Source: an uncultured Clostridia bacterium | GTDB taxonomy: Bacteria > Bacillota > Clostridia > Christensenellales > UBA1242 | Length of the DNA stretch: 39,187 nt | Assembly (NCBI GenBank): GCA_944384425.1 | Contig: CALWTI010000004.1 | Location: 1 to 39,187 of the forward strand | Direction: 5' to 3' | Shown here: in pieces, positions 955-29,573 of the stretch | Layout of the letters: each line of letters starts with the position of its first letter | Numbering within the stretch: the first letter of the stretch is position 1 | The notes under the pieces: generated by a model | Databases searched by the model: none | The model's input: only the letters and a program-made list of their open reading frames with translations | What the model was told of the DNA's origin: nothing | Translations under genes and position numbers: made by a program

Positions 955-3900
955 ATGTTTACGACTAAAAGAAAATTTAACTATTTATCTATCATTATTA
1001 TTAGTTTGCTTCTTGCAATTTGTTTATGCTTTTCACCTACATTTAGCACAAGCGTTGCATCAGCAGAAACAATGGCATCAAATGAACTAACTATTACAAA
1101 TAGCGATTTTGATTCATCTTCAACCACATCTTTGCAATCAACTCCAAGCGGTTGGTCAAGAGTTGGCACTTCAAATGGTACAAATGGTGTAATAAGCGTC
1201 AATGCTGACACTTTTTCTAACCGTGCATCAAGTTACGCCTTGACAAGCTCTCAAAACCCAAGCAAGCCATACACTCAGCCAAACAATGAGCTTGATGACC
1301 ATATTCTTATGATAAATGCAAAAAGTGAAGCTGACACAAATGAGTCAAACCACCTTGGCTATAAGTCAAATGACATCTCACTTGAAGCATATTCATATTA
1401 TCGTTTCAGCATATGGACATTGACACAAACAAACGCTCACGCATCAATATATATTGACGGGCTTGGTGATGACGCTTTAAACACAAGTTTTGAAAACTAC
1501 ACAACAAACGGCTGGACTGAATACAGATTTTATATTGCAACAGGAATTGATTCAAAGACTGTCAACATTCAACTTTGGCTTGGAACAAAGACAAATGACA
1601 GCCATAACGCAGTGTTCTTTGACCACATCACAGCTAGACAATTATCAGGCAACTATTTTTATAACGAAGCTGGTCAATATGTTGGAACAAGCGATGTTGC
1701 ATTAAATAGAATAAATGTCATCGACCTAAGAGATACACTCGATGGCATGATTGAAAATGCAGATTTTGAAAATGGCGACTTCACTGGCTGGACTGTTGAA
1801 AACTACTTACCTATCGGTGGCGACGCAAAAATAGTTAGCATACAAAATTCTGCAAGCATGGAAAGTTTGGGACTTGATTATCTCGGTTCTTCACTAAGCG
1901 AACAAAACAGATATGCCCTACTTATGTATTCAACATCAAAAAATGCAGTGACAATTGAGTATGAAAGCACTTCTTTTGAAGTTTTGCCTTATGAAACATA
2001 TAAAATCACAGTTTGGGCAAAAGTCAGTGACGACTTTGACGGAACTGCATATGTAACTCTTCGTGAAGGCACTGATGTGTCAAACTTCTATGGTGAAGAG
2101 TATGCTGAAGACTTTTATACTCCAATAGAGCAATCAGTTTCAATAACATCAAACACTAAAAATGAAATGACAAATGACTACACACCTTATTACATCTTTG
2201 TTAAAGGTCATGACCTATTCAAAACTTCTTTCTCACTCGTACTTGGCTTTGGTAACGATGAAGAAGGTGCAAAAGGCAGTATTGTATTTGACGACATAAC
2301 TTTTGAAAGTATTTCACACGAACAGTTTGACGACGCGACAACAACAAATGCAATATCTGTTGAACCTACAATCCTTACTGGTTCACCTTCAGTTGAGAAT
2401 GGAACATTTAACACATCGGACACACTAGACAAAAACTTTGAGTATCCTGTTAAGCCTGCTAGTTGGACAAGCGAAACTGAAAATGACACATCGAATATGT
2501 ACGGAATTGTCAACACCTACTCACCTTTATACAATGACCACAGAGCTGAATACGGCAATGCACAAAACCCACAAAACCCATCAAGCGTTTCAACTCTTGG
2601 CGTTGATAAAGATGTGAATAATGTCTTGATGATGTATAACTATCAAGAAACATATCAATCAGTAACTAGTGCAAATATTTCGACTACTGCTAATAGCTAT
2701 CAAATGTTGTCTTTTGATTACAAAACAGTTGCTCAAAATTTAAACAACGCACTTATGAGCGTTTATGTTCTTGACAGCGACAACAATGTTTTGTATGCAG
2801 ATGAAGGTTTGTCAAGTAGTGCATGGACAACATATTCTATCTTGGTCAACACAGACACATACGCAACAACATTAAAACTCAAAATTGCACTCGGAACAAG
2901 TCAATCACCTGTTATTGGATTTTTGTATATTGACAATGTCAAATTTGAAACAAATTCAAATATAACTGACGACAATTATGAAGATTACCAAAAAGCAAAC
3001 AACACACTTGACTTCTCACTTACAAACTTTGGCTTTGTTTCAAGCGAAACAGTAAAAGACATACACACCCCATACATGTATGAGCAAAAACTTGAAAATG
3101 GAGAAAATCCAGAACAAGGAAACATTGCAATTTATGGTGGTATGATTGATGCTACAAATAACATCTACGGTATACAAAACAGTACAAACGGCACATCAAA
3201 TGAGCAATATATCCCAGCATTTATTTCTGAATACGCTGTTGGCAAATATACCCTTACCGGCAAAGAATCAATAACTCTTGACGCTGACACTTACTACAAA
3301 ATCTCAATCGATGTTTTAACAAGATTTAGTGGCGACACAGCTCAAGAAGGCGTAGATGATAAAGACAAACTTGCCTTTGGTGCAGTGTTTGGGCTAAATG
3401 GTATGGACAAGAATTTTGAAAACATTGTTTCAAATGACGCATGGACAACTTACACAATTTATGTAACAGTTTCTGAAAGTACTGATGTAAAACTTCAACT
3501 TGGTATTTTGAACGAAAGCACAAATATTTTAGGTCAAGCATTCTTCGACAACTTCACACTAGAGACCATTGATGAAAGTGCATATAACAGTGCAACGGAA
3601 AAGTATGCTGATGACAATAAAGTTTTGATATTGACATCTAGCGACACAACAACAGAAGACGAAGACACAGCAACTGATGACACAACAAGTGACGAAGACA
3701 CCGATGGTATGATTTGGTATGTCATCCCTACCGCAATATTGTTTGTTGCCCTTGTCATTGCCCTTTGTGCTTACTTTATGAGAAAGATAACAATTAAAAA
3801 ATGGGAAAGAAAGAAAGCAAGCGAATACGACAGAGAAACTACCCTTCACAGAGATGTTGTTAGACGTGAAGCAGAACAAATCAGAGATGCAAAAATTAAA

Positions 3901-4266
3901 GAATATCAAAACAAGATTGATGACATTAAAGCACAATTAACTGAGATGGAACAAACACATCAAGAAGTTCTTAAAAAACAGCGTACAACATCTGGGCAGC
4001 AAGAAATTACAAAAGCTATGGAAAAAGATTTCAAGGCATATGCTTCAAAACATACCAAACTTGAAAATCAAATCGAAGCTCTCAATGCTAAGATTGAAAA
4101 CTTTAAACTCCCTGAATACTTGATTTCAATTCAACGCGGAATAATTGCAGAACGTGTTAAAAAAGAAAAGCAAGAAAAAGAAGCTAAACTTAAACAACAA
4201 AAAGCTGAGAAAAAAGCAAACAAACAAAAAGCAAAGCAAGAAAAGAAAGAAAGTAAATCAGAGTAA
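955..4266 (+). CDS. Large secreted, membrane-anchored protein with about 4 CBM/galactose-binding-like beta-sandwich repeats, acidic linker, TM helix and cytoplasmic coiled coil
   Basis: Signal peptide ending VASA. Repeated NxxFd/e starts (NSDFD, NADFE, NGTFN) and FDxI/V ends (FFDHIT, VFDDIT, YIDNVK, FFDNFT). TM at about 3706-3780. K/E/Q-rich tail. Confidence 0.65.
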   Translation: MFTTKRKFNYLSIIIISLLLAICLCFSPTFSTSVASAETMASNELTITNSDFDSSSTTSLQSTPSGWSRVGTSNGTNGVISVNADTFSNRASSYALTSSQNPSKPYTQPNNELDDHILMINAKSEADTNESNHLGYKSNDISLEAYSYYRFSIWTLTQTNAHASIYIDGLGDDALNTSFENYTTNGWTEYRFYIATGIDSKTVNIQLWLGTKTNDSHNAVFFDHITARQLSGNYFYNEAGQYVGTSDVALNRINVIDLRDTLDGMIENADFENGDFTGWTVENYLPIGGDAKIVSIQNSASMESLGLDYLGSSLSEQNRYALLMYSTSKNAVTIEYESTSFEVLPYETYKITVWAKVSDDFDGTAYVTLREGTDVSNFYGEEYAEDFYTPIEQSVSITSNTKNEMTNDYTPYYIFVKGHDLFKTSFSLVLGFGNDEEGAKGSIVFDDITFESISHEQFDDATTTNAISVEPTILTGSPSVENGTFNTSDTLDKNFEYPVKPASWTSETENDTSNMYGIVNTYSPLYNDHRAEYGNAQNPQNPSSVSTLGVDKDVNNVLMMYNYQETYQSVTSANISTTANSYQMLSFDYKTVAQNLNNALMSVYVLDSDNNVLYADEGLSSSAWTTYSILVNTDTYATTLKLKIALGTSQSPVIGFLYIDNVKFETNSNITDDNYEDYQKANNTLDFSLTNFGFVSSETVKDIHTPYMYEQKLENGENPEQGNIAIYGGMIDATNNIYGIQNSTNGTSNEQYIPAFISEYAVGKYTLTGKESITLDADTYYKISIDVLTRFSGDTAQEGVDDKDKLAFGAVFGLNGMDKNFENIVSNDAWTTYTIYVTVSESTDVKLQLGILNESTNILGQAFFDNFTLETIDESAYNSATEKYADDNKVLILTSSDTTTEDEDTATDDTTSDEDTDGMIWYVIPTAILFVALVIALCAYFMRKITIKKWERKKASEYDRETTLHRDVVRREAEQIRDAKIKEYQNKIDDIKAQLTEMEQTHQEVLKKQRTTSGQQEITKAMEKDFKAYASKHTKLENQIEALNAKIENFKLPEYLISIQRGIIAERVKKEKQEKEAKLKQQKAEKKANKQKAKQEKKESKSE

Positions 4267-8656: not shown

Positions 8657-10807
8657 TTAGTCAATGCCTTTCATTGTGAGTGAGATTCTCTTTTTCTCAA
8701 CATCTACGCCAAGAACTTTGACTTGCACAATGTCGCCTACTTTTAATACTTCGCTTGGATGTTTGATATATTTATCACAAATTTGAGAAATGTGAACAAG
8801 TCCATCTTGGTGAACTCCAATATCAACAAAGGCACCAAAGTCAATGACATTTCTCACAGTGCCTGTTAGCACCATTCCTTCTTTTAAGTCTTCAAGTGAA
8901 AGCAAATCACTTCTAAGCACTGGTTTTGGCATACTCTCACGAATATCTCTGCCCGGACGCAAAAGCTCTTCAACGATATCAACAAGCGTTGGCACACCAA
9001 CGTGACATAGCGAGGCAACTTTTTCTTCGCCTTCTTTTTTTATCATATCTTTTAGTGATGATATATTGCCGTTTTTAACATCTTCGCTTGTGAAGTTATA
9101 GTGTTGTAATAAAATTTTAACCGCATCGTAACTCTCTGGGTGAACAGCCGTGTTGTCAAGCACATTGTCGCCGTCAGTAATACGCAAAAAGCCTGCACAC
9201 TGCTCAAACGCCTTTTGACCAAGTCCTGAAACTTTTAAAAGTTGTTCCCTATTTTCAAAACGCACAATTTCTTGCCTATATTTGACAATGTTTAATGCGC
9301 TCTTGGAGTTTAGTCCTGAAACAAATTCTAGTAGTCTTGGAGATGCAGTATTCAAATCTACGCCAACACTATTGACGCAATCTTCAACAACACCTGTAAG
9401 CACTTCGGTTAGTCTTGCCTGTGGCATATCGTGTTGATACTGCCCAACGCCTATTGACTTAACATCTATTTTGATAAGTTCGCTGAGTGGGTCTTGAAGT
9501 CTACGAGCGATGCTGACTGCACTTCTTAAATTGACATCATAGTCTGGAAATTCCTGTGCTCCAAGTTTTGATGCACTGTAAACAGATGCTCCTGCTTCAT
9601 TTACCATTGCATATGAAACTGGGCGGGATATGTGCTTTAATAGTTCAACAACAAATATTTCACTTTCTTTGCTTGCCGTTCCATTGCCTATTGCAATTAT
9701 GTCGACTTTGTCCTTATTTATGAGTTTGGTCAAAATCTCCATACTCTCTTCGGTTTGTGACTTTGGTGGAGTTGGATACACAACGGCGGTGTCAAGAACA
9801 TCACCTTTTTTATCAATAACTGCAATTTTGCAACCCATTCTATATCCTGGGTCAAAGCCCATAATGACATTGTTTTTAAGTGGTGCTTGCAAAAGAAGTG
9901 GACGAAGGTTGACATCAAACATCTTTATTGCCTGCTCGTCTGCCCTTTCTGTCAATGATGTTCTTAGCTCTCTTTCAAGTGATGGGAACAAAAGCCTATC
10001 ATAACTGTCAACTATTGTTTCTTGCATTATGTCGTGAGTTGCTTGGTTTTCTTTTAAATAAACTTTTTCAATTTCTTTAAGTGCTATTTTTTCATCCAAA
10101 ACAACATTTACTTTAAGACAATCTTCTTTTTCGCCACGGTTTATTGCTAGTATTCTATGGCTTGGCATTTTCTCAACAGGCTCTGTATAGTCTGCATACA
10201 TCTCATATGTCTTATTTTTCTCGTTGTCGAGAAGCGAAGTCTTTATGCTTGCCTTTTTCTCCAAAAGTTCACGAAGTGTCTTTCTTAGTTCACTATCATC
10301 ACTTATCATTTCTGCAATGATATCTTTTGCGCCAGACAGAGCTTCCTGTGGGGTTTTGACGCCTTTTTCTTCATTTACATACACTTCACATAGTTTAAGT
10401 ATGTCGCCGTCATACTCTTGCTTGACAATAATGTCTGCAAGTGGTTGCAAGCCTTTTGCAATAGCAACCGATGCACGCGTTTTACGCTTTGGTTTATATG
10501 GTCTATATATATCTTCAACTTCTGTCAAGGTCTTTGCGTCATTTAGTTTTGTTGCAATCTCATCAGTCCATTTGTCTTGCTCTTTTATGCTATTTTCAAC
10601 TTCTAGTTTGCGCTTTTCCAAGTTACGCAAATAATTTAGTCTATCATTCATCTCACGCAAAATTTGGTCATCAAGACTGCCTGTGAGCTCTTTTCTGTAT
10701 CTTGCGATGAAAGGTATTGTGTCTCCCTCATCAATCATTTTGACAATGTTTTCAACTCTATCAAGTCTGACATCAAACTCTTTGGATAATGTTTCATTTA
10801 TGTTCAT
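8657..10807 (-). CDS. tex: Tex family RNA-binding transcriptional accessory protein
   Basis: TIPFIARYRKE, EDIYRPYKPK, YqgF domain GFDPG, SIGVGQYQHD and C-terminal S1 domain. Confidence 0.95.
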   Translation of the reverse strand: MNINETLSKEFDVRLDRVENIVKMIDEGDTIPFIARYRKELTGSLDDQILREMNDRLNYLRNLEKRKLEVENSIKEQDKWTDEIATKLNDAKTLTEVEDIYRPYKPKRKTRASVAIAKGLQPLADIIVKQEYDGDILKLCEVYVNEEKGVKTPQEALSGAKDIIAEMISDDSELRKTLRELLEKKASIKTSLLDNEKNKTYEMYADYTEPVEKMPSHRILAINRGEKEDCLKVNVVLDEKIALKEIEKVYLKENQATHDIMQETIVDSYDRLLFPSLERELRTSLTERADEQAIKMFDVNLRPLLLQAPLKNNVIMGFDPGYRMGCKIAVIDKKGDVLDTAVVYPTPPKSQTEESMEILTKLINKDKVDIIAIGNGTASKESEIFVVELLKHISRPVSYAMVNEAGASVYSASKLGAQEFPDYDVNLRSAVSIARRLQDPLSELIKIDVKSIGVGQYQHDMPQARLTEVLTGVVEDCVNSVGVDLNTASPRLLEFVSGLNSKSALNIVKYRQEIVRFENREQLLKVSGLGQKAFEQCAGFLRITDGDNVLDNTAVHPESYDAVKILLQHYNFTSEDVKNGNISSLKDMIKKEGEEKVASLCHVGVPTLVDIVEELLRPGRDIRESMPKPVLRSDLLSLEDLKEGMVLTGTVRNVIDFGAFVDIGVHQDGLVHISQICDKYIKHPSEVLKVGDIVQVKVLGVDVEKKRISLTMKGID

Positions 10808-12074
10808 TTTTTAACCTCTTTTTTATTTCATCAACTTTTTTGTAAATTTGCTCCACATCTTCATTTGTGTATTTGCCATCACGATACAAAATTTTTCCGT
10901 CAATCATGGTCAGTTTAACATCAGACGACTTCGCCGAATACACAAGGTTAGATACTAAATTGTCATGTGGGTGCATATGCGGATTATGAATGTCCACAAC
11001 TATTATGTCTGCCTTTTTGCCTTTCGCAATTTCCCCATTGTCAAAGCCTAGTGCTTTTGCTCCGTTATATGTCGCCATTTTAAGCACTTCGCCTGCCTTG
11101 ACCACACTTGCATCGCTTATGCTCACCTTTGAAAGCGTTGCGACCAAAAACATTTCTTTGAACATATCTAGGCTGTTATTTGACGCCGGTCCGTCTGTGC
11201 CTATTGTTATGTTTATGCCCTTGTTTTGCATTGCGTACACTGGAGCAATACCACTTGCAAGCTTCACATTTGACGATGGGCAAGTGCATATGCTTGCGTC
11301 ATAGTCAGACAAAATTTGCAAATCATCTTTGTCCATATGCACACAGTGGTAGCACAGTGTTTGCCTATCAAAAAAGCCCAAACTTTCAAGATATTGTGGA
11401 GGAGTGAGTCCGCCATTTTGAACTGTGCAGTTGCCAACTTCGTCAAGCGTTTCACTAAGGTGTATGCTCATTGGCAAATTGTGTTTTGCTGAAAAGTCAA
11501 CACTTTTTTCAATATCTTCTTGTGTGGTTGAATATATCGCATGAATATAAACACATGGCTTTAAAAGTGAACTGTCGTAGTCTTTAAATAAATCAAGCTG
11601 AGATTTTAAATAAGCTTGCAAATCACCACTCACCTTTCTTGTTGAAGGACCAAAGCCTACGCGCGCCCTAAGTCCCGACTGTGACAACGCCTGCAAAATT
11701 TTGTCATTTTCAAAATAACATTCTTCAACTGTTGTGATTCCACTTGCAAGATATTCAAGCACTGCAAGTTTCTCACCCCAATAGATGTCATCGGGCGTCA
11801 GTTTGTTTTCAAGTGGTATCATATAATTATAAAGCCACTCATCAAGTGCTGTGTCATCACCTGTGCCACGAAGAATTGACATTGGTGAATGACAGTGAGC
11901 ATCGACAAAACCTGGCATGACAATATTTTCGTTACAATCAATAACTTCGTCAAATTCGCCAAAAATGGACGTGCCGACATATTCAATGGTGTTTCCACAA
12001 ACTATGACATTGCCAAGTGACAATGTGGCATCTTGAACATTTAATATATTTGCATTCTTAAATAAAATTCTCAT
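10794..12074 (-). CDS. mtaD: Amidohydrolase, 5-methylthioadenosine/SAH deaminase-like
   Basis: PGFVDAHCH, IHLSET, HCV, CPSSNVKLASG and GTDGPASNN. Substrate is inferred from family only. Confidence 0.75.
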   Translation of the reverse strand: MRILFKNANILNVQDATLSLGNVIVCGNTIEYVGTSIFGEFDEVIDCNENIVMPGFVDAHCHSPMSILRGTGDDTALDEWLYNYMIPLENKLTPDDIYWGEKLAVLEYLASGITTVEECYFENDKILQALSQSGLRARVGFGPSTRKVSGDLQAYLKSQLDLFKDYDSSLLKPCVYIHAIYSTTQEDIEKSVDFSAKHNLPMSIHLSETLDEVGNCTVQNGGLTPPQYLESLGFFDRQTLCYHCVHMDKDDLQILSDYDASICTCPSSNVKLASGIAPVYAMQNKGINITIGTDGPASNNSLDMFKEMFLVATLSKVSISDASVVKAGEVLKMATYNGAKALGFDNGEIAKGKKADIIVVDIHNPHMHPHDNLVSNLVYSAKSSDVKLTMIDGKILYRDGKYTNEDVEQIYKKVDEIKKRLKNEHK

Positions 12075-12132
12075 AAAAGCCCTTATATTTGTCATATTAA
12101 GATTAGTACAATTATACCAAAAGGAGGGAAAA

Positions 12133-13377
12133 ATGCAAACAAAAAAGATAATTCTTCATTGCGATGTCAACAATTTTTATGCGTCATGCGAATGTGCGTT
12201 GAACCCTTCAATAAAAGACCAACCTGTCGCCGTCACAGGCGAAGTCACAAAAAGAAATGGTATCGTGCTCGCAAAAAATGAAATTGCAAAGCAGTTTGGC
12301 GTCAAGACTGGTGACGTTATTTTTGAAGCGAAAAAAAAGTGTCCTAACCTTGTTTGCGTTAGACCGCACCACAAAATTTATGAAAAGTATTCAAGGCGCA
12401 TACGAGCAATATATGAAGAATACACCGACAAAGTTGAGCCTTTTGGAATTGATGAGTGCTGGCTTGATATAACTGACACAGTCAAGTTTTTTGGCGATGC
12501 AATAAATGTGGCAAACACACTCAGAAAAAGAATAAAAGAAGAAATTGGCGTGACCATATCTGTTGGGGTTAGCTTTTCAAAAACTTTTGCAAAACTTGGC
12601 AGTGATATGAAAAAGCCTGACGCAGTCACAATTCTTTCCCCTGAGAATTTTAAACAAAAGACATATGGTATGCCACTTGGTAACATCATTGGAGTTGGAA
12701 AGAAGATTGAAGCAAAACTAAACAAACTAAATATATTTACGCTTGGCGACCTTGCAGATTATGACGAGAACATAATTAAAAACAAATTTGGTGTGGTTGG
12801 ACAAAAACTACAAAATAATGTTCGTGGAATTGACGACGACGATGTGCAAAATGTCGAAGACACGCACATTGTCAAAAGCGTTGGCAACGGCACAACCACG
12901 CTTGTAGATGTCAAAACAAAAAAAGAGCTTCGAAGCGTTGTGATGTTTTTGTGCGATGAGATTGCAACAAGACTAAGGGCAAAACATTTGAGTGGTTCAA
13001 CTGTTTCTGTGTCACTTAGACAAAACAATTTGACCTGGATATCAAAAAGCCACACCATGACAAAAAGCACAAATATTTCGAAAATGCTTTATAATGAGGC
13101 CATTATGATTATTGAAGATTTGTGGAACGAAGTATATCCCCTTCGAAGCATAAGAATAAGCGTTTCAAATCTTGATAGCGAAAATATGTCACAACTTGAT
13201 TTGTTCGACACCGATAGAAATAGGCGCACACTTGAAAACACAATTGATAAGATACGCCAAAAATATGGTTATGATTGCATAAAGCCACTTATTAGTCAAA
13301 ATGATAAGCTGATAAACTCAACTGCCCTTAGAATTGAAGAGCAAGAAAACGCAGACAATAACGATGACTTACTTTAA
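12133..13377 (+). CDS. dinB: DNA polymerase IV (Y family)
   Basis: LHCDVNNFYAS, GIDECWLD and AKLGSDMKKPD. SD AGGAGG. Confidence 0.93.
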   Translation: MQTKKIILHCDVNNFYASCECALNPSIKDQPVAVTGEVTKRNGIVLAKNEIAKQFGVKTGDVIFEAKKKCPNLVCVRPHHKIYEKYSRRIRAIYEEYTDKVEPFGIDECWLDITDTVKFFGDAINVANTLRKRIKEEIGVTISVGVSFSKTFAKLGSDMKKPDAVTILSPENFKQKTYGMPLGNIIGVGKKIEAKLNKLNIFTLGDLADYDENIIKNKFGVVGQKLQNNVRGIDDDDVQNVEDTHIVKSVGNGTTTLVDVKTKKELRSVVMFLCDEIATRLRAKHLSGSTVSVSLRQNNLTWISKSHTMTKSTNISKMLYNEAIMIIEDLWNEVYPLRSIRISVSNLDSENMSQLDLFDTDRNRRTLENTIDKIRQKYGYDCIKPLISQNDKLINSTALRIEEQENADNNDDLL

Positions 13378-13953: not shown

Positions 13954-14487
13954 TTAAATTACAAGTTGCTTTTTTACTAAACTTAAAAGAGAAGTACACA
14001 AAATAAGCGAAAGAAGCGTGCCTGATAATATATCTGTTAAATAATGTTGTCCAAGATACATTCTTGAAAGTGCCGTTAAAATTAAAAATAAAATACTTAA
14101 AATTATTATCAATATTTTCGTCCATCTTTTTTTGCATTTTTGAAGCGCAAAAAGTAGTATAAAAAACACCATTGTCGTTGCACAAACCATATGTCCACTA
14201 GGAAAACTCTGTCCCACTGCTTCAAGCTTGTTTATAACGCCAGCATCGACTTCAAAAGGCCTTGGACGATTAAAAAAGAATTTTAATAAATAATTAAAAC
14301 AAATATTTATTATTATTGATAAAATAAAATAAAATGAAAATTTTTTATTTGCAAAAAAATAAAATATAATAAATAATAAAATAACACCTAAAAAGCTTGC
14401 AAATAAACTAATTATCCAAAAAAATGTGTCAAAAAAGGCATTTTGACCACTTTGTAAAAATTTAATTATGGCAATTTCCCACTGCAT
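13954..14487 (-). CDS. PAP2 family phosphatase
   Basis: KxxFNRPRP, SFPSGH and SRMYLGQHY. Confidence 0.92.
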   Translation of the reverse strand: MQWEIAIIKFLQSGQNAFFDTFFWIISLFASFLGVILLFIIFYFFANKKFSFYFILSIIINICFNYLLKFFFNRPRPFEVDAGVINKLEAVGQSFPSGHMVCATTMVFFILLFALQKCKKRWTKILIIILSILFLILTALSRMYLGQHYLTDILSGTLLSLILCTSLLSLVKKQLVI

Positions 14488-15113
14488 ATTTTTATTATAT
14501 CAAAAAAATATATTTTTGACCAAAAAAAAATTACAATTTCTCAAATATAATTAAATTGGTTTGTGTAAAAATCGCTACATAAAACACAAAAAAAGCATAA
14601 AAGGTAGCAAAGACAAGTGCGTCATATAATATTATAAACACAAAAATAGCCACGAGGGCCTGGGCAAAAACTGCACTCTCGGCACACTTTCGCAAAAGTT
14701 TTGCAAAAGTTAGTGCTTGATGTTTGTTTTTGCCCTTTTCTCACGGCCAAACGAAAAGTGCACTGCGTTGGCACTTTTGCCGTGACTTCGTCGAAACTGT
14801 CGCTTTTGGCTTCAATTTGCTATTCGCAAATTTTTGCTTTACGCTCCGTTTCTCCTCTCCCCAAAAAGTGTCTTAACTTTTTGGGGGCCCCAATATTTAT
14901 GCACTCTAACAAATTGTTTACATTTGCCAAAGATAGTGCTTGATGTTTCTTTTTGAGGGTTTTGATACTCACGCACGAGTTTAGTTCCCTTAAACGACCG
15001 TATGGCTTGGCACCCCAGAAACAAAGTATATTGGTAATAATAAACACAGAATAGCCACGAGGGCTAGGCTCGAAACAAAAATTAAGTGACAAAAACGAAA
15101 TGTATCGTTTAGT

Positions 15114-15192
15114 ATTATAAACGCAAAAAAGCCCCAAGAGCAAGGCTCGACAAGTCGTGACACGCACGAGTTTAGTTCCCTAAACGACCGTG
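15114..15192 (+). repeat. 79-bp direct repeat, copy 1
   Basis: Identical to 15263-15341 (period 149 bp). Confidence 0.97.
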
Positions 15193-15262
15193 ACTATGAG
15201 AAAAAATTATGAAAAGGATAAAACAAAAAATTAGGAGGCAAAGACGAAATGTGCAGTTTAGC

Positions 15263-15341
15263 ATTATAAACGCAAAAAAGCCCCAAGAGCAAGGCTCGAC
15301 AAGTCGTGACACGCACGAGTTTAGTTCCCTAAACGACCGTG
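15263..15341 (+). repeat. 79-bp direct repeat, copy 2
   Basis: Identical to 15114-15192. Confidence 0.97.
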
Positions 15342-15387
15342 TGGCACGGCTTGGCAGTAAACACAGCTATTGGGTGCTTTTTTGCGT

Positions 15388-16863
15388 TTATAATAGGATG
15401 CAGATTATGCCACCCTTCCCCTCATTAACAATCCTTCCAACTGTTTTGCGCATTTTGCGCTGAGCTTCTTGTGGCATGGCTGTAAGCTTTTCTTGAATAC
15501 CTTCGCTGACAAGTGTTTCAAGTGTTTTGCCAAACATATTTGTTTGCCATACACCCTCGGGATTTGTTTCAAACTCGTCTTTGAGATATTGCGCTAAGTC
15601 CTTGGTTTGTTCTTCTGTTCCAACGAGTGGGTTGACTTCGGTTTCAACATCAACTTTCATAATGTGCAAACTTGGTGCTGTAGCTTTGATTTTAACGCCA
15701 TATCTTCCACCCTGTTTGACAACCTGAGGAGCTTCAAGAACCATGCTATCAAGTTTTGGTATCACAACGCCATATCCATTTTCGTCAACCTCTTGAAGTG
15801 CTGATGCAAGTTTGTCATATTGAGTTTTTGCAAATGCCAACTCTTTGATGTAGCGCACAAGATGATAATCGTCTTGAATTTTTGTGCCACATTGATTTGA
15901 AAGCACTTTGTAAAATAGTTGCTGGCGAGGTTTTATGTTAAACATTATTGTACCTTCGCCCATTTTTATTGAACCAATGGTCAATGGCTCAAAATCGTCA
16001 CTTTCCAAAAAGGCAACATTTGTTTTGTCTATTTGTCCTATTTTTTCTGCACCTTCACCAAACTTTTTGACTTCGTCTATTATTGTTGTGATAATCTCAT
16101 CATCGCCGTCAAGAGCACGAAGCCAATCTGGCATTGTCACTTTTAGCGAACGAATAGGAAATTCAAGTAACACTTTTTCAAATATTTGCTCAATGTCATT
16201 TTCTGAAAGCTCTTTCACATTGATAGCAAGTGTTGAAACTCCGTATTTCTTCTCCAAACTTTTTGCAAGATTTTGCGTGTCGGCACTTTGTGGGTTTTTG
16301 GAGTTGACAACAAGAACAAATGGCTTTCCTGTCTTTTTGAGTTCGTCAACAACTTTTTGTTCTGCCTCAACATAACTTGAACGAGGCAAGTCACTAATTG
16401 AGCCGTCTGTTGTGATTGCAACACCAATTGTCGAATGTTCGGTTATCACCTTTTCTGTGCCAATCTCTGCTGCCTGTTCAAACGGCATATCTTTTTCTGA
16501 CCAAGGTGTTTTGACAAGTCTTGGCTTGTCACCCTCTTCATGCCCCATTGCTCCACTGATTAGGTAGCCAACACAGTCAACAAGTCTGACACTTAGGTCA
16601 ACATCTGCAACATGGACATTGACTGCGTTCTCTGGCACAAACTTTGGCTGTGTCGTCATTATTGTCTTACCTTCAGCACTTTGAGGCAACTCATCCACTG
16701 CACGCTCTTTTTGCTGTTCGTTTTTTATGTTTGGAATCACCAAGTTTTGCATAAAGCGAGATATAAACATAGATTTACCACTTCTCACTGGCCCTACAAC
16801 ACCTATATATATATCACCATTGGTGCGTTTTTTTATGTCTTCGTATATTTCAAATCTTTCCAT
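15388..16863 (-). CDS. spoIVA: Stage IV sporulation protein A
   Basis: IYIGVVGPVRSGKS, DELPQSA, IMTTQPKFVP, RLVDCVGY and C-terminal NEGKGGIICILL. Confidence 0.97.
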   Translation of the reverse strand: MERFEIYEDIKKRTNGDIYIGVVGPVRSGKSMFISRFMQNLVIPNIKNEQQKERAVDELPQSAEGKTIMTTQPKFVPENAVNVHVADVDLSVRLVDCVGYLISGAMGHEEGDKPRLVKTPWSEKDMPFEQAAEIGTEKVITEHSTIGVAITTDGSISDLPRSSYVEAEQKVVDELKKTGKPFVLVVNSKNPQSADTQNLAKSLEKKYGVSTLAINVKELSENDIEQIFEKVLLEFPIRSLKVTMPDWLRALDGDDEIITTIIDEVKKFGEGAEKIGQIDKTNVAFLESDDFEPLTIGSIKMGEGTIMFNIKPRQQLFYKVLSNQCGTKIQDDYHLVRYIKELAFAKTQYDKLASALQEVDENGYGVVIPKLDSMVLEAPQVVKQGGRYGVKIKATAPSLHIMKVDVETEVNPLVGTEEQTKDLAQYLKDEFETNPEGVWQTNMFGKTLETLVSEGIQEKLTAMPQEAQRKMRKTVGRIVNEGKGGIICILL

Positions 16864-25762: not shown

Positions 25763-26692
25763 TTATATTTTTTCAATTATTCTAAGTTTTGCCGATGTGC
25801 TTCTAGGGTTTTCTTGTCTTTCTTCCACTGACGCAAGTATTGGCTTTTTGTTGACAAGGTTTACAGTCTTTTTGTGACCACATATGCAAATTGGTGTTCC
25901 CGGTGGGCACAAACAGTCTGTTGCACATAGTTTGAAGGCATTTTTCACAATTCTATCTTCAAGAGAGTGAAAAGTTAGCACTGCCATTCTCCCGCCGTGG
26001 TTCAATTTTGTTATCAAGAATTGTAGCGTTTCAAAAAGTTTATCAAGTTCGTGATTGACTTCAATCCTTATCGCCTGAAAAGTCTTTTTATCTGCTCCGC
26101 CCCGTGCAAATACCACTTTTTTTGGCATACTGCTTTCTATTATTTGTGCTAGTTGTTTGGTTGTCGTTACTGGTCTATTTTTTACTATGTTTGAAGCTAT
26201 TGACCTTGCATAACTTTCTTCGCCATATTCACTTATAATTCTTGTTAAGTGACTTAATGAGTATTTGTTCACAACATCCATTGCCGAAAATGGCTGAGAT
26301 TTGTCCATACGCATATCAAGTGGGGCATCAAACCTAAAACTAAAACCACGCTCCGCCGTATCTATTTGATGAGAGCTTACGCCAAGGTCAATCAGCACTC
26401 CATCAAGCGAAGTTATATTTAATGTTTTTAAAATATTTTCAATGTCTTTGAAGTCGCCTTTATACAAAATGACATTATCATACTCGCTAAAACGCTTTTT
26501 GCAGGCGTCTATTGCTTCTTGGTCTTTATCTATTCCAATTAGTTTGCCTTTTGACGAAAGGTGCTTTAATATCTCACTGCTGTGTCCCCCGCCACCTATT
26601 GTGCAGTCAAGATAAATACCATCGGGTCTAATATTTAGACCCGATGTTACTTCTTTCAACATTATTGGAATATGTTTAAATTCAGTTTCCAT
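25763..26692 (-). CDS. rsmH: 16S rRNA m4C1402 methyltransferase RsmH (MraW)
   Basis: HIPIML, DCTIGGGGHS, DLGVSSHQID, LDMRMD, FQAIRIEVN and FHSLEDRIVK. Confidence 0.97.
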   Translation of the reverse strand: METEFKHIPIMLKEVTSGLNIRPDGIYLDCTIGGGGHSSEILKHLSSKGKLIGIDKDQEAIDACKKRFSEYDNVILYKGDFKDIENILKTLNITSLDGVLIDLGVSSHQIDTAERGFSFRFDAPLDMRMDKSQPFSAMDVVNKYSLSHLTRIISEYGEESYARSIASNIVKNRPVTTTKQLAQIIESSMPKKVVFARGGADKKTFQAIRIEVNHELDKLFETLQFLITKLNHGGRMAVLTFHSLEDRIVKNAFKLCATDCLCPPGTPICICGHKKTVNLVNKKPILASVEERQENPRSTSAKLRIIEKI

Positions 26693-29573
26693 AATTTTCT
26701 TTAACACTAGTTATGACGCTATGCCAATCAACATCGCCGTCTGTTGTATTATTCTCTATCACTTCACTAACATATGCACCAATCGTTGCATCTTGCTTAA
26801 TATAGTCAAGCATTGCATCATATGCGCCTTCAAACACGCCTTGACTGTTTGCACTGTCTTCAAGTTTTTCAAGTAGTCCTGCAAGACTTTCTGAGTTTTC
26901 TCCTGTTGCTAGGTCGCTAATTGATGTTGAGTTCATAATATCGCTTGCAATATCCGTCACCGAAGCCAAAACATCAACAACTTCTTCAACTTGTTCATCA
27001 GTCAAATTGTCCAAATCAACTGGTATGTCAACGCCTAAGTCCCCTACATACTCTTTTATTTGTGCATTGACACTGTTGACTACCAAAACCCCAACAGGTC
27101 TAAACACACGACTGTTCATCAGTGGTCTAAAAATGTTTGACACATCATCTGATGTCACTTGGTCAAGCATATTTTCAAGGTTGCCAACTTTTAAGATATA
27201 TGAAATCAAATTGTAGTTTTCGCCTTCATAAACTATTGTCTTTTCACGCATAAGGTCAATGACTGGTTGAAGCGTTGCAAACTCTGTGCTGAATGAGAAA
27301 GTTTGGTCTTTGAAGCAATTAAAGTCAATAAATTGATTGAGCTCTGTGTCGGCAAGTGTGTCAATAAGGTTTGTGTATATGCCATTTACCACAGTGCCGT
27401 CTTTTTCTATGTCACCAAATATACTTGATGCCCTAACTGAGTCAATACATCTACCGAACTGAGTTAAGTTAGATGACAAAATCTGTTCAAATATGTTTTC
27501 TTTAAATTGCGAGAAGTCAATATCTCTAAGATATGTTGCGACATTGTCAACAAAGGCAAAAAGATTTTCTTTTTCGCTCTCTTTATAAAGTGCATCATAG
27601 TTTATTTCACCAAGCTGTGCACCTTCTTTTAACATATCCCCAAAGTCGTTTATAACACCACTTAAATTTTCAAATCCAACACGAATGAGTTTACTAAATG
27701 CGTTACTATTGTAAATAGGTTCAACTATTTGTCTTATAAGTGTCTTTGTTTCGCCATTTATCTCTGTTGTTGAAACAAGATTTTGGAACATTTTTGAGAA
27801 GTTTTCATCAGCAACATAGTAATTGCCGTCTTGACCTTTTTCGATATAACTTACCACTTGCGACTTTCTTATGTTTGAAATCACATTAGATAGTGTTGAT
27901 GTTTCATTTAACCAAACATTGTCACCCTTAAAGATTTCAAAGTCGACATACTTATTGTACTCTGTGCTTTCAAGAGCAGTGACAATTTGGTCATATATGC
28001 CCGTTGAGCTGAAAACATTCATATTTTGAAGTGCGTTCATCATTGAACCAGCATTTGTAACAATGTTTTCAAGATCTAAGTCAAACACCGTCAAGAAATT
28101 ATCTTTAATTGAATTAAGGTCTTCACCAATAACATCGTTCGCAATATTTATTGCACTTGAAAGCAAACTTTTAACTTCGCCCTTTTTGAGTGTCATTTGG
28201 TCATTTTTAATGTCTATATTTGATATTGTCAACGCTTGGTTATTTGTAAGAGTTTTAAGCTCATCTTCAAGTGCGTCAATACCCATATTTAGTCCAAAGA
28301 TGACTGCCTTATTTAAAATTTTTGAATTGAAGATATTGTCTATTATTTGGTCAAATACCTTTTTGTTATCTTTTGAAACAATGTGAAGTATTTGTTCGAT
28401 ATTGCTTTCTGTAACTTGACCGTCTGATGGAATTCGGTCAAATATTTTGTTATCCGCCATAATTTTTGCGGTGCTAATGACAGCAGATATGTCATTTTTT
28501 AAGTTTTGAGTGACACCGTCGTCAGAATTTAGCACATTACGAACTGCATCAATAAGTTCGATATACTGTGGCTCAGACTGCACTTCGTCCATTTCAAGCA
28601 ACTTATCAAAGCCATAGTCAACAAGTTCAGGAAGAGCAGTTGTTAAAAGTTTTGAATTGAAGATATAATCAACGGCAGTTGAAAGACGATCATAATCCAA
28701 TGTTTTGAAAGCGTCAAAACTAGAAAAGTCAACATCTATCAAAAAGCCTACATTGTCGTACACGCTTGCAATATTGACAACTTCATTTCTAAGTGAAATT
28801 TTTGTATTGTTGACTGTAACTGATGCAACTTGATTGAAAACTGAGTCATCAAGTCCCAATACTCCACTGACCTTTGCTATTGCACTGTCAGAGTAAGCAT
28901 CCAGATACACCTTCACATCATCTGGTACATTTTCATTTATAAACTGAGCAGAAAGTGAAAGGTTTAATGATGTGCCTTCATCGGCAGAAACTGCTTGTGC
29001 AGTTGACAAGTCATTGTACATACCAACAATGCCACTTAGTGGCAAAAATGTTAAAAATGCAAGAATTAGCCCTTGTGCAGCACCAACAAGACCACCAAAA
29101 ATACGCCATTGTTTTGACTTGACCTTTTTTCCTGTTTCATCAACTGTGGCTTTATTCTTTTTGAAAAATGCTGATGCTATGACAAGATAGATGACCCAGC
29201 CAACTAGATTCAAAACATAGCAAAGAAGCACAAAGGACACAAGGTTGACAAGCATAACTGGCATATTTTCAACAAGCGCTGAAAGTGTTGGACTTGCCGC
29301 CATAACCTCTGAAACTTCGGCTGAAGAATTGTTTATTGCAGACAAAATAATGTCTTCAATTGAAGTCAAACTCCCTTCATATGTTATTTGAATGTCAAGT
29401 ATCAGTCGAGATATATACGGTGTGATAATTGCCGCAATGATTATTGAAACAAAAAAGAATGCAAGCCTTAATGCAGATTTTTTTAAGCCTTTCATAAAGC
29501 CAAATAAAAATCCAAGCACCAAGAACAACGCGAACAATATGTTTAATATCAAAAGAACCATTGTTGCGCTCAT
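26682..29573 (-). CDS. Large membrane protein: CvpA-like N-terminal TM module plus about 760-aa acidic helical repeat region
   Basis: About 4 TM segments (GFLFGFMKGL, RIFGGLVGAAQG), internal 206-aa-offset repeat and SD AGGAGG. Confidence 0.6.
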   Translation of the reverse strand: MSATMVLLILNILFALFLVLGFLFGFMKGLKKSALRLAFFFVSIIIAAIITPYISRLILDIQITYEGSLTSIEDIILSAINNSSAEVSEVMAASPTLSALVENMPVMLVNLVSFVLLCYVLNLVGWVIYLVIASAFFKKNKATVDETGKKVKSKQWRIFGGLVGAAQGLILAFLTFLPLSGIVGMYNDLSTAQAVSADEGTSLNLSLSAQFINENVPDDVKVYLDAYSDSAIAKVSGVLGLDDSVFNQVASVTVNNTKISLRNEVVNIASVYDNVGFLIDVDFSSFDAFKTLDYDRLSTAVDYIFNSKLLTTALPELVDYGFDKLLEMDEVQSEPQYIELIDAVRNVLNSDDGVTQNLKNDISAVISTAKIMADNKIFDRIPSDGQVTESNIEQILHIVSKDNKKVFDQIIDNIFNSKILNKAVIFGLNMGIDALEDELKTLTNNQALTISNIDIKNDQMTLKKGEVKSLLSSAINIANDVIGEDLNSIKDNFLTVFDLDLENIVTNAGSMMNALQNMNVFSSTGIYDQIVTALESTEYNKYVDFEIFKGDNVWLNETSTLSNVISNIRKSQVVSYIEKGQDGNYYVADENFSKMFQNLVSTTEINGETKTLIRQIVEPIYNSNAFSKLIRVGFENLSGVINDFGDMLKEGAQLGEINYDALYKESEKENLFAFVDNVATYLRDIDFSQFKENIFEQILSSNLTQFGRCIDSVRASSIFGDIEKDGTVVNGIYTNLIDTLADTELNQFIDFNCFKDQTFSFSTEFATLQPVIDLMREKTIVYEGENYNLISYILKVGNLENMLDQVTSDDVSNIFRPLMNSRVFRPVGVLVVNSVNAQIKEYVGDLGVDIPVDLDNLTDEQVEEVVDVLASVTDIASDIMNSTSISDLATGENSESLAGLLEKLEDSANSQGVFEGAYDAMLDYIKQDATIGAYVSEVIENNTTDGDVDWHSVITSVKENYGN

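Follow-up and report, generated by a model that had tools for sequence, protein, structure and literature searches.

The repeat cluster downstream of spoIVA

This work concerns a cluster of small structured repeats lying between the sporulation gene spoIVA and its downstream neighbor in a 39,187-nt stretch of DNA from an uncultured Clostridia bacterium (contig CALWTI010000004.1, the whole of the stretch being called the window here), and above all one repeat family, named Z, that closes directly over the spoIVA stop codon. The spoIVA gene (15388..16863, − strand) carries the SpoIVA ATPase, middle and C-terminal domains (Pfam E values 1.2e-112, 1.9e-58 and 4.7e-32), and the next gene downstream, on the same strand, encodes a PAP2-family phosphatase (13954..14487, − strand; Pfam) with a predicted promoter-like site at 14522-14494 on the − strand. 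Between these two − strand genes lies the intergenic region 14488-15387. A BLAST search with this region against its own assembly (G000; 1.03 Mb, 69 contigs, GC 34%, 89.5% complete) found the repeats to be dispersed: nearly all of 14636-15389 is sequence repeated elsewhere in the assembly, and the interval 14631-15395 is a pile-up of three dispersed families, Z, X and Y.

Nearest to spoIVA stands an intact copy, Z1, a hairpin of ~133 nt (15263..15395, on the + strand, the strand of the covariance model R1 described below), identified by its inverted repeat, its fold and a model score of 102 bits. Its arms are 15263-15284 and 15373-15394 and its core is 15279-15377. Because the head of the repeat recurs inverted at 15373-15395 (22-23 nt, 95-96% complementary), a feature overlooked in the original prediction, 15263-15395 is one closed hairpin overlapping the end of spoIVA, with the stop codon (15388-15390) inside its arm; it is the reverse complement of the model strand that stands in the spoIVA mRNA. 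A spacer (15193..15262, without strand) follows, containing at ~15218-15242 a lone A-tract arm of another Z subfamily, the arm type that closes the spoIVA-proximal copy in the related genome G017. Farther out come Z2 (15114..15192, + strand), truncated to one arm, the 5′ half and the apical hairpin, with the other arm missing (model match 15130-15222, 27 bits; lone 5′ half 15138-15169); Z3 (15037..15075, + strand), a head only, made up of an arm and the conserved GGCTCG motif and found through the direct-repeat families; and Z4 (14970..15036, + strand), an armless fragment with the apical hairpin and 3′ half, found by direct repeats and a model match (14943-15037, 22.3 bits; lone 3′ half 14996-15030). 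Beyond them lie debris without strand (14893..14969), which includes a 33-nt duplicate (14923-14955, 91%) of the X part 14700-14732, then the second dispersed family, Y (~107 nt, 14786..14892, + strand; BLAST), and a long Z variant (14631..14788, + strand), in which a Z-type head (14631-14661) is followed by an X module (14662-14788) in the place where the Z helix would be, X being itself a dispersed family.

The locus had been described beforehand, from its sequence, as a polarized array of structured repeats accreted behind spoIVA, and much of that description was borne out. The repeat search recovered its four heads at 14631, 15037, 15114 and 15263, and the faint head placed near 14580 corresponds to a 15-nt A-rich match at 14582..14596 (+ strand, 93% to 14636-14650), which exists but is weak and possibly due to chance. 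The two 79-nt copies said to be identical (15114-15192 and 15263-15341) are so at 100%, 149 nt apart, and their upstream flanks are related but diverged, the match extending with the flanks to 127 nt at 90% or to 121 nt at 92.6% (BLAST). The copies degenerate with distance from spoIVA, as the model scores fall from 102 to 27 and then 22.3 bits. The array is also richer in GC (0.39-0.44) than the adjoining intergenic sequence at 14300-14600 (0.175-0.22), and palindromic beyond chance: the proximal unit of 146 nt has a folding energy of −60.3 kcal/mol on the − strand and of −64.3 kcal/mol on the + strand, values that 0 of 200 shuffles attained. Seven terminator-like sites are predicted in 14300-15600 against 1.0 ± 1.0 in shuffled sequences, those on the − strand including 15297-15278 and 15148-15129. 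None of the 34 open reading frames (ORFs) of at least 90 aa in the window has a transposase or Cas domain of Pfam, in agreement with the earlier statement that no such gene lies nearby. The reading of the units as a small non-autonomous structured element thus held, in that they are copies of one such element with no mobilizing gene in the vicinity. Three ORFs inside the array match no Pfam family (14820-15167, − strand, 115 aa; 14701-14943, + strand, 80 aa; 15209-15463, + strand, 84 aa); the GC-richer repeats most likely give rise to them by accident, and annotation could take them for genes by mistake.

The array could in principle be peculiar to this locus, through an error of assembly or a simple tandem duplication at spoIVA, and we regard this as extremely improbable. 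Logan contigs of four other runs, which are short fragments, bridge both unit junctions independently: record 22 of X6 covers 15151-15247 with 6 other letters and 2 gaps, and record 3 of X3 runs over 15223-15337 with 0 differences. These contigs gave no information on expression, and no RNA run containing the locus was found. In G019 and G008, two genomes assembled separately, the proximal copy and the distal X/Y part stand at the corresponding place, and the Z family is found genome-wide. What speaks for a local origin is the identity of the 79-nt copies, which no single contig of another run spans together, and the fact that G019 possesses no more of the second unit than its first ~30 nt.

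Z is a dispersed hairpin family with covarying stems

Z is an imperfect palindrome of ~135 nt. Its outer arms, ~20 nt each, carry an A-tract on one side and a T-tract on the other, and they vary between subfamilies yet remain complementary; the invariant motifs C.AGGCTCG, GCA.GAG, GAC.GT and CAG.AAAC flank a long helix and an apical hairpin of 5-6 bp. With its A-tract, GC-containing stem and T-tract, the base of the element resembles a two-way intrinsic terminator.

The conservation of this structure among copies, on which the original account had made itself dependent, was found to be pronounced. RNAalifold applied to a MAFFT alignment of 17 copies gave 29 pairs, 17 of them with compensatory changes. 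In an alignment of 73 distinct copies from several genomes, which was fitted to the model and leans towards structure for that reason, 94.1% of the cells are paired against 72.4% in shuffles, double-change cells number 453 against 141, and the covariation score is 0.528 against 0.159, a value reached by 0 of 500 shuffles, while slid controls are 26-50% paired. The MAFFT-based result with 17 copies agrees in direction with the covariation in the 73. Covariation thus gives strong support to the predicted stem fold of Z.

The features of the two strands point in opposite directions as to which of them matters. On the + strand of the window, the model strand, nearly all intact copies fold 5-20 kcal/mol better, and three conserved G·U pairs contribute 185 of the 216 G·U cells; outside these three pairs G·U (31) and A·C (32) are about equal, with no further strand asymmetry. 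On the − strand, the co-transcribed one, the apical loop is a GNRA tetraloop in 41 of the 73 copies and in 41 of the 46 whose loop has four nucleotides (GTAA 21, GAAA 8, GGAA 8, GCAA 3, GAGA 1).

The covariance model R1 was built from 17 full copies of Z and applied with a cut-off of E ≤ 0.01. It gave 46 matches in G000, 3 of them in the window (102, 27 and 22.3 bits), and 4-37 matches in each of the 19 other genomes of the genus, which measure ~1.0-1.4 Mb, and Z is present in 20 of 20 genus genomes with G000 included. Beyond the genus, R1 matched in 3 of 5 other genera of the family and in 1 of 16 other families of the order. The copies of G000 stand behind many unrelated genes and tRNAs, so that the view of the array as something special to spoIVA and its sigma-E transcript had to be abandoned. 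Contig ends of G000 often fall in these repeats. Rfam at gathering score found only a tRNA in the window, and at E ≤ 10 it gave for 14300-15600 five matches of E ≥ 4.5 and 13-23 bits, far under the gathering scores; a BLASTN search in distant mode against plasmid and phage collections returned no match. Z is an undescribed family of a described kind of bacterial repeat, and the earlier expectation of an undescribed system is upheld for the family and fails for the kind.

The orientation of Z follows the gene upstream of it

Repeat clusters start a few bases from stop codons, and frequently between convergent genes. Among the intergenic regions, Z occupies 8 of 120 between convergent genes, 11 of 585 between tandem genes and 3 of 117 between divergent ones. 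All 11 copies whose core lies at most 19 nt from the stop codon of a gene of at least 120 aa have the model strand antisense to that gene, and the nearest sense copy in G000 is at least 43 nt from a stop codon. Of 38 distinct copies in the relatives, 14 lie no more than 45 nt from the end of an ORF of at least 100 codons, 13 of them antisense and 1 sense; 5 of the 13 are orthologues of the spoIVA copy. Scanning of the gene-proximal side placed the stop codon inside the Z arm for 13 of the 34 copies that score at least 60 bits, in the forms TAG-ACTGCC, TGA-TTGAC and TAA-AAACGC.

In 27 of 31 copies the model strand, which is the better-folding one, also coincides with the C-rich strand as judged by GC skew (27 versus 4), and replication was considered as the primary determinant of orientation. 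This was ruled out by two tRNA genes that run head-on to replication (C9:26431 and C8:14260): the Z copies behind them remain antisense to the gene and break the replication rule, so the orientation of Z follows the upstream gene. On contig C2 of G000 the GC skew and the majority gene strand flip sign at ~25-43 kb (~−0.06 at 20 kb, +0.06 at 43 kb), which may mark a replication origin or terminus.

Gain, loss and decay of Z copies

Comparison with relatives revealed sites that lack Z. At C2:42934-43110, G000 has a 19-nt leader followed by Z, where G008 has only a native two-way terminator (A7, 7-bp stem, 7-nt loop, T8), and the native hairpin of ~23 nt is found on both sides of the insert in G000. 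The insertion at C2:20057-20190, for which G019 offers a clean empty site and G008 a 35-nt arm remnant, replaced the last bases of the neighboring ORF, whose new stop codon is derived from the element. At C9:27646-28070, X and Z of G000 are matched in G008 by a single lone arm, which could be the product of a deletion between repeated arms.

The 3′ region of spoIVA, a gene present in 20 of 20 genus genomes, was likewise compared between strains, and it holds Z in some genomes and plain terminators in others. Z stands 11-15 nt after the spoIVA stop codon in 6 of 18 genomes (G000, G019, G008, G009, G017 and the distant G007), G015 has a partial Z ~90 nt downstream, and the other 11 of the 18 have no Z and instead short terminators of A-tract, hairpin and T-tract; in one of these, G006, the next gene follows after ~115 nt rather than ~900 nt. 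Since the arms of the proximal copy differ among G000, G009, G017 and G007, Z has turned over behind spoIVA.

How the array grew is less simple than repeated addition at one end, as had been proposed. The gradient of intactness is genuine and general: of 7 arrays lying within 75 nt of the end of a gene or tRNA, 6 have their highest-scoring copy next to that end, and the count becomes 8 of 10 when orientation alone decides which side is proximal. Addition at one end is only partly supported, and the differences from the relatives lie in the middle of the array. At the spoIVA locus, positions 349-760 of G000 match 380-800 of G008 at 92% while the middle differs from G008, and G019 matches the first 259 nt beyond the spoIVA end (95%) before its contig ends. 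The second unit of G000 repeats the distal 79 nt of the first without a difference. Because the proximal and distal parts are common to the relatives and the middle differs, the 79-nt copy seems to have arisen locally and recently, through partial duplication or gene conversion, and not as a fresh insertion. Selection that keeps only the first copy intact would account for the gradient equally well. Nor is there a general rule of truncation polarity, because lone Z halves genome-wide (12 of the 3′ and 5 of the 5′ half) run opposite to the pattern in the window.

X, Y and the genes that could move the repeats

BLAST matches to X and to Y were each obtained in 11 of 20 genus genomes. At C9:26103-26420, C2:46085-46409 and C28:4840-5106 of G000, Y (~107 nt) has a complete tRNA (Leu or Arg) on one side and on the other a partial copy of it, 43-65 nt long; elsewhere Y lies inside either arm of Z helices. 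The integron attC site, the hammerhead and other ribozymes, and, for Y, a tmRNA-like RNA were considered and rejected, as their motifs did not fit on inspection and Rfam lent no support. Another small repeat, GTCATTC(C/T)GAG ... (A/G)GAATCTC, was observed in intergenic regions of relatives where G000 is empty (G015, G004, G009, G017, and G008 downstream of spoIVA).

No candidate enzyme accompanies Z through the genus. In G000, at its 89.5% completeness, the DDE transposase families PF13358, PF00665 and PF01609 gave 0 matches, and tyrosine recombinases (PF00589) number 3. An IS200-like Y1 gene, the only transposase found in G000 and present there in several copies, occurs in 8 of 20 genus genomes, TnpB (PF07282) in 1 of 20 and reverse transcriptase (PF00078) in 8 of 20, 6 of them over the cut-off; none of these three tracks Z, because Z is in all 20. 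A search of G000 for Z halves flanking a gene, as an autonomous parent would have, yielded only intervals with host genes. Contig C8 of G000 has at 9919-12175 an inverted duplication with two convergent ORFs of ~200 aa without a Pfam family at curated score, each preceded by Z in mirrored orientation and with near-identical flanks; no recombinase domain was found in these ORFs between inverted Z copies. An IS200-like element at C23:5230-5890 has a 153-aa Y1 transposase (Pfam E 1.6e-40) and hairpin-bearing ends; at least six other contigs terminate in sequence matching these ends, so that the element is multi-copy and breaks the assembly. Compared by eye, the IS200 ends and Z share only an 8-nt word, which is within chance.

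A transposase of fixed stagger does not fit, because the duplications vary in length, from ~23 nt and ≤3 nt at Z sites to the 43-65-nt partial tRNA copies beside Y. Template switching at hairpins would be a possible route for the spread of Z.

Discussion

Based on these findings, we consider it likely that the region behind spoIVA is a compound cluster of small non-coding hairpin repeats, and that Z is a mobile element which mimics a terminator and has spread within its lineage. As a kind, Z most likely resembles the SPRITE repeats, the REPINs and the miniature inverted-repeat transposable elements (MITEs). It would have spread by a route that needs no enzyme encoded by the element, landing at or on stop codons and on terminators, and its copies would persist by doing the terminator's job for the upstream gene. 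The first Z after a gene would then be kept intact, while further copies, partial duplicates and nested X and Y insertions decay behind it, and the outcome behind spoIVA would be one intact Z holding the stop codon, followed by at least five fragments.

The closest kind appears to be SPRITE of the pneumococcus, a terminator-like repeat with AAAA/TTTT ends that occurs near the 3′ ends of coding sequences, with enrichment between convergent genes and without a matching insertion sequence (IS); it is found in its species and the nearest relative and almost nowhere else, and its orientation mirrors the coding bias at 63% (Croucher 2011, PMC3049150). Z is likened to it as a kind, description against description. 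On the published description of SPRITE, both are small non-coding interspersed repeats that fold like an oversized terminator with A/T-tract ends, both sit at the 3′ ends of coding sequences with enrichment between convergent genes, which for Z is the excess over tandem intervals given above, and both lack a matching IS and are narrowly distributed. However, Z is a closed palindrome whose helix covaries, whose internal loops are invariant and whose apical hairpin is capped; its orientation to the upstream gene is almost absolute, it often includes the stop codon, and empty sites were found for it, whereas SPRITE had none available.

REPINs consist of hairpin doublets that show compensatory changes (Bertels and Rainey 2011, PMC3116915), and as far as that account of them goes, Z shares with REPIN and REP-BIME elements the extragenic hairpin doublets in tens of copies, the compensatory changes in stems, the several subfamilies per genome and the clusters with partial units. 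Yet by eye it has no GT[AG]G foot motif at the hairpin base, one subfamily having GTAG ~11 nt before the arm, and there is no single-copy RAYT gene flanked by the repeat, nor was Y1 found in 12 of the 20 genomes that carry Z. Classical MITEs (Correia, RUP, ERIC) are dispersed non-coding elements of less than 200 bp with inverted ends. Z resembles them in size, lack of coding capacity and dispersal, in presence or absence between relatives, in its ability to overlap gene ends and in terminal inverted repeats of 22-23 nt that are 95-96% complementary, although these are not MITE-specific in Z because the whole element is palindromic; it differs in having no parent IS or DDE transposase in G000, and may differ in its target duplications, whose length is not constant between the two clean empty sites. 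In E. coli, REP elements within ~15 nt of stop codons reportedly stall ribosomes and trigger trans-translation. Z would likewise present a stable hairpin at or right after the stop codon that the terminating ribosome must open, with the difference that in Z the stop codon is inside the stem.

Several points weigh against reading Z as a mobile terminator mimic. We infer termination by Z solely from its shape and position, and the covariation comes in part from an alignment inclined towards structure. The target duplications at the two clean empty sites disagree, being ~23 nt, or the whole hairpin, at one and ≤3 nt at the other. The evidence on strand conflicts, with the G·U pairs favoring the + strand and the GNRA loop and co-transcription favoring the −. 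Finally, the fixed orientation, the invariant asymmetric loops and the GNRA cap exceed what a passive repeat needs and hint at a specific function of the single strand.

These last features would be expected if Z were primarily a functional structured RNA module in the 3′ untranslated region of the upstream gene, such as a stabilizer of mRNA ends, a device coupling ribosome and termination at the embedded stop codon or a protein-binding site, with mobility as a secondary matter. The orientation is fixed to the upstream gene even behind the head-on tRNAs, the four-nucleotide loops are nearly always GNRA on the co-transcribed strand with all four bases seen at N, the motifs of the internal loops are invariant while the stems covary, and more than a third of the scanned copies hold the stop codon in the arm. 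But the three conserved G·U positions become A·C mismatches on the co-transcribed strand, the copy number varies from 4 to 37 between species with orthologous sites often empty and occupied by plain terminators, and broken copies accumulate. We regard a primary role of this sort as possible but rather unlikely. A variant that unites both ideas would make Z a self-spreading terminator module acting as RNA, whose GNRA-capped helix recruits a host factor through its invariant internal loops, whose stop codon in the stem couples translation termination to transcript-end formation, and which spreads without a transposase by template switching at terminators; such switching would explain both the hairpin- or tRNA-sized target duplications and the orientation fixed by transcription, but we think the full scheme improbable. 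Still a little more doubtful is that Z is a REPIN or palindrome-associated element of single-stranded DNA, cut and rejoined by a Y1 HUH transposase (IS200 TnpA or RAYT). The long hairpin doublet with compensatory changes, comparable to REPINs as described (PMC3116915), the several copies of an IS200-like Y1 gene in G000 and the strand bias relative to GC skew would suit it. Y1 is, however, missing from most of the genomes that have Z, among them G019, G017, G002, G007 and G005, which show 21-37 Z matches and no Y1 gene; contig C23, the carrier of the Y1 gene, has no R1 match; and the bias follows the upstream gene and not replication, as the head-on tRNAs indicate. Moreover, IS608 and ISDra2 prefer the lagging-strand template (Quentin et al. 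2018, PMC6006769), while the better-folding strand of Z is on the leading-strand template, opposite to these two and to what IS200/IS605-derived palindrome-associated elements would call for, to the extent that the cited account bears on it.

A mobile, terminator-mimicking Z thus remains the reading we favor, although its fixed orientation, embedded stop codon, GNRA cap and invariant loops leave room for a role at the RNA level. The array behind spoIVA is neither a device of spoIVA or sporulation nor a new system, which removes a false lead, and a high-copy structured repeat is documented in a genus of gut Clostridia with genomes of ~1 Mb. Repeats of the Z type break assemblies, give rise to spurious ORFs (14820-15167, for example) and may lead searches for non-coding RNA astray. 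The gene-fixed orientation, the stop codon in the stem and the replacement of native terminators are relevant to the evolution of terminators and gene ends in compact genomes.

Other open reading frames of the window

Away from the repeats, two adjacent ORFs of 129 and 119 aa at 126-872 (− strand) each match half of the TauE/SafE exporter profile, and represent either a split gene or a pair of half-size genes. Two large ORFs, at 955-4263 (+ strand, 1103 aa) and 26685-29573 (− strand, 963 aa), match no Pfam family at E ≤ 1e-5.

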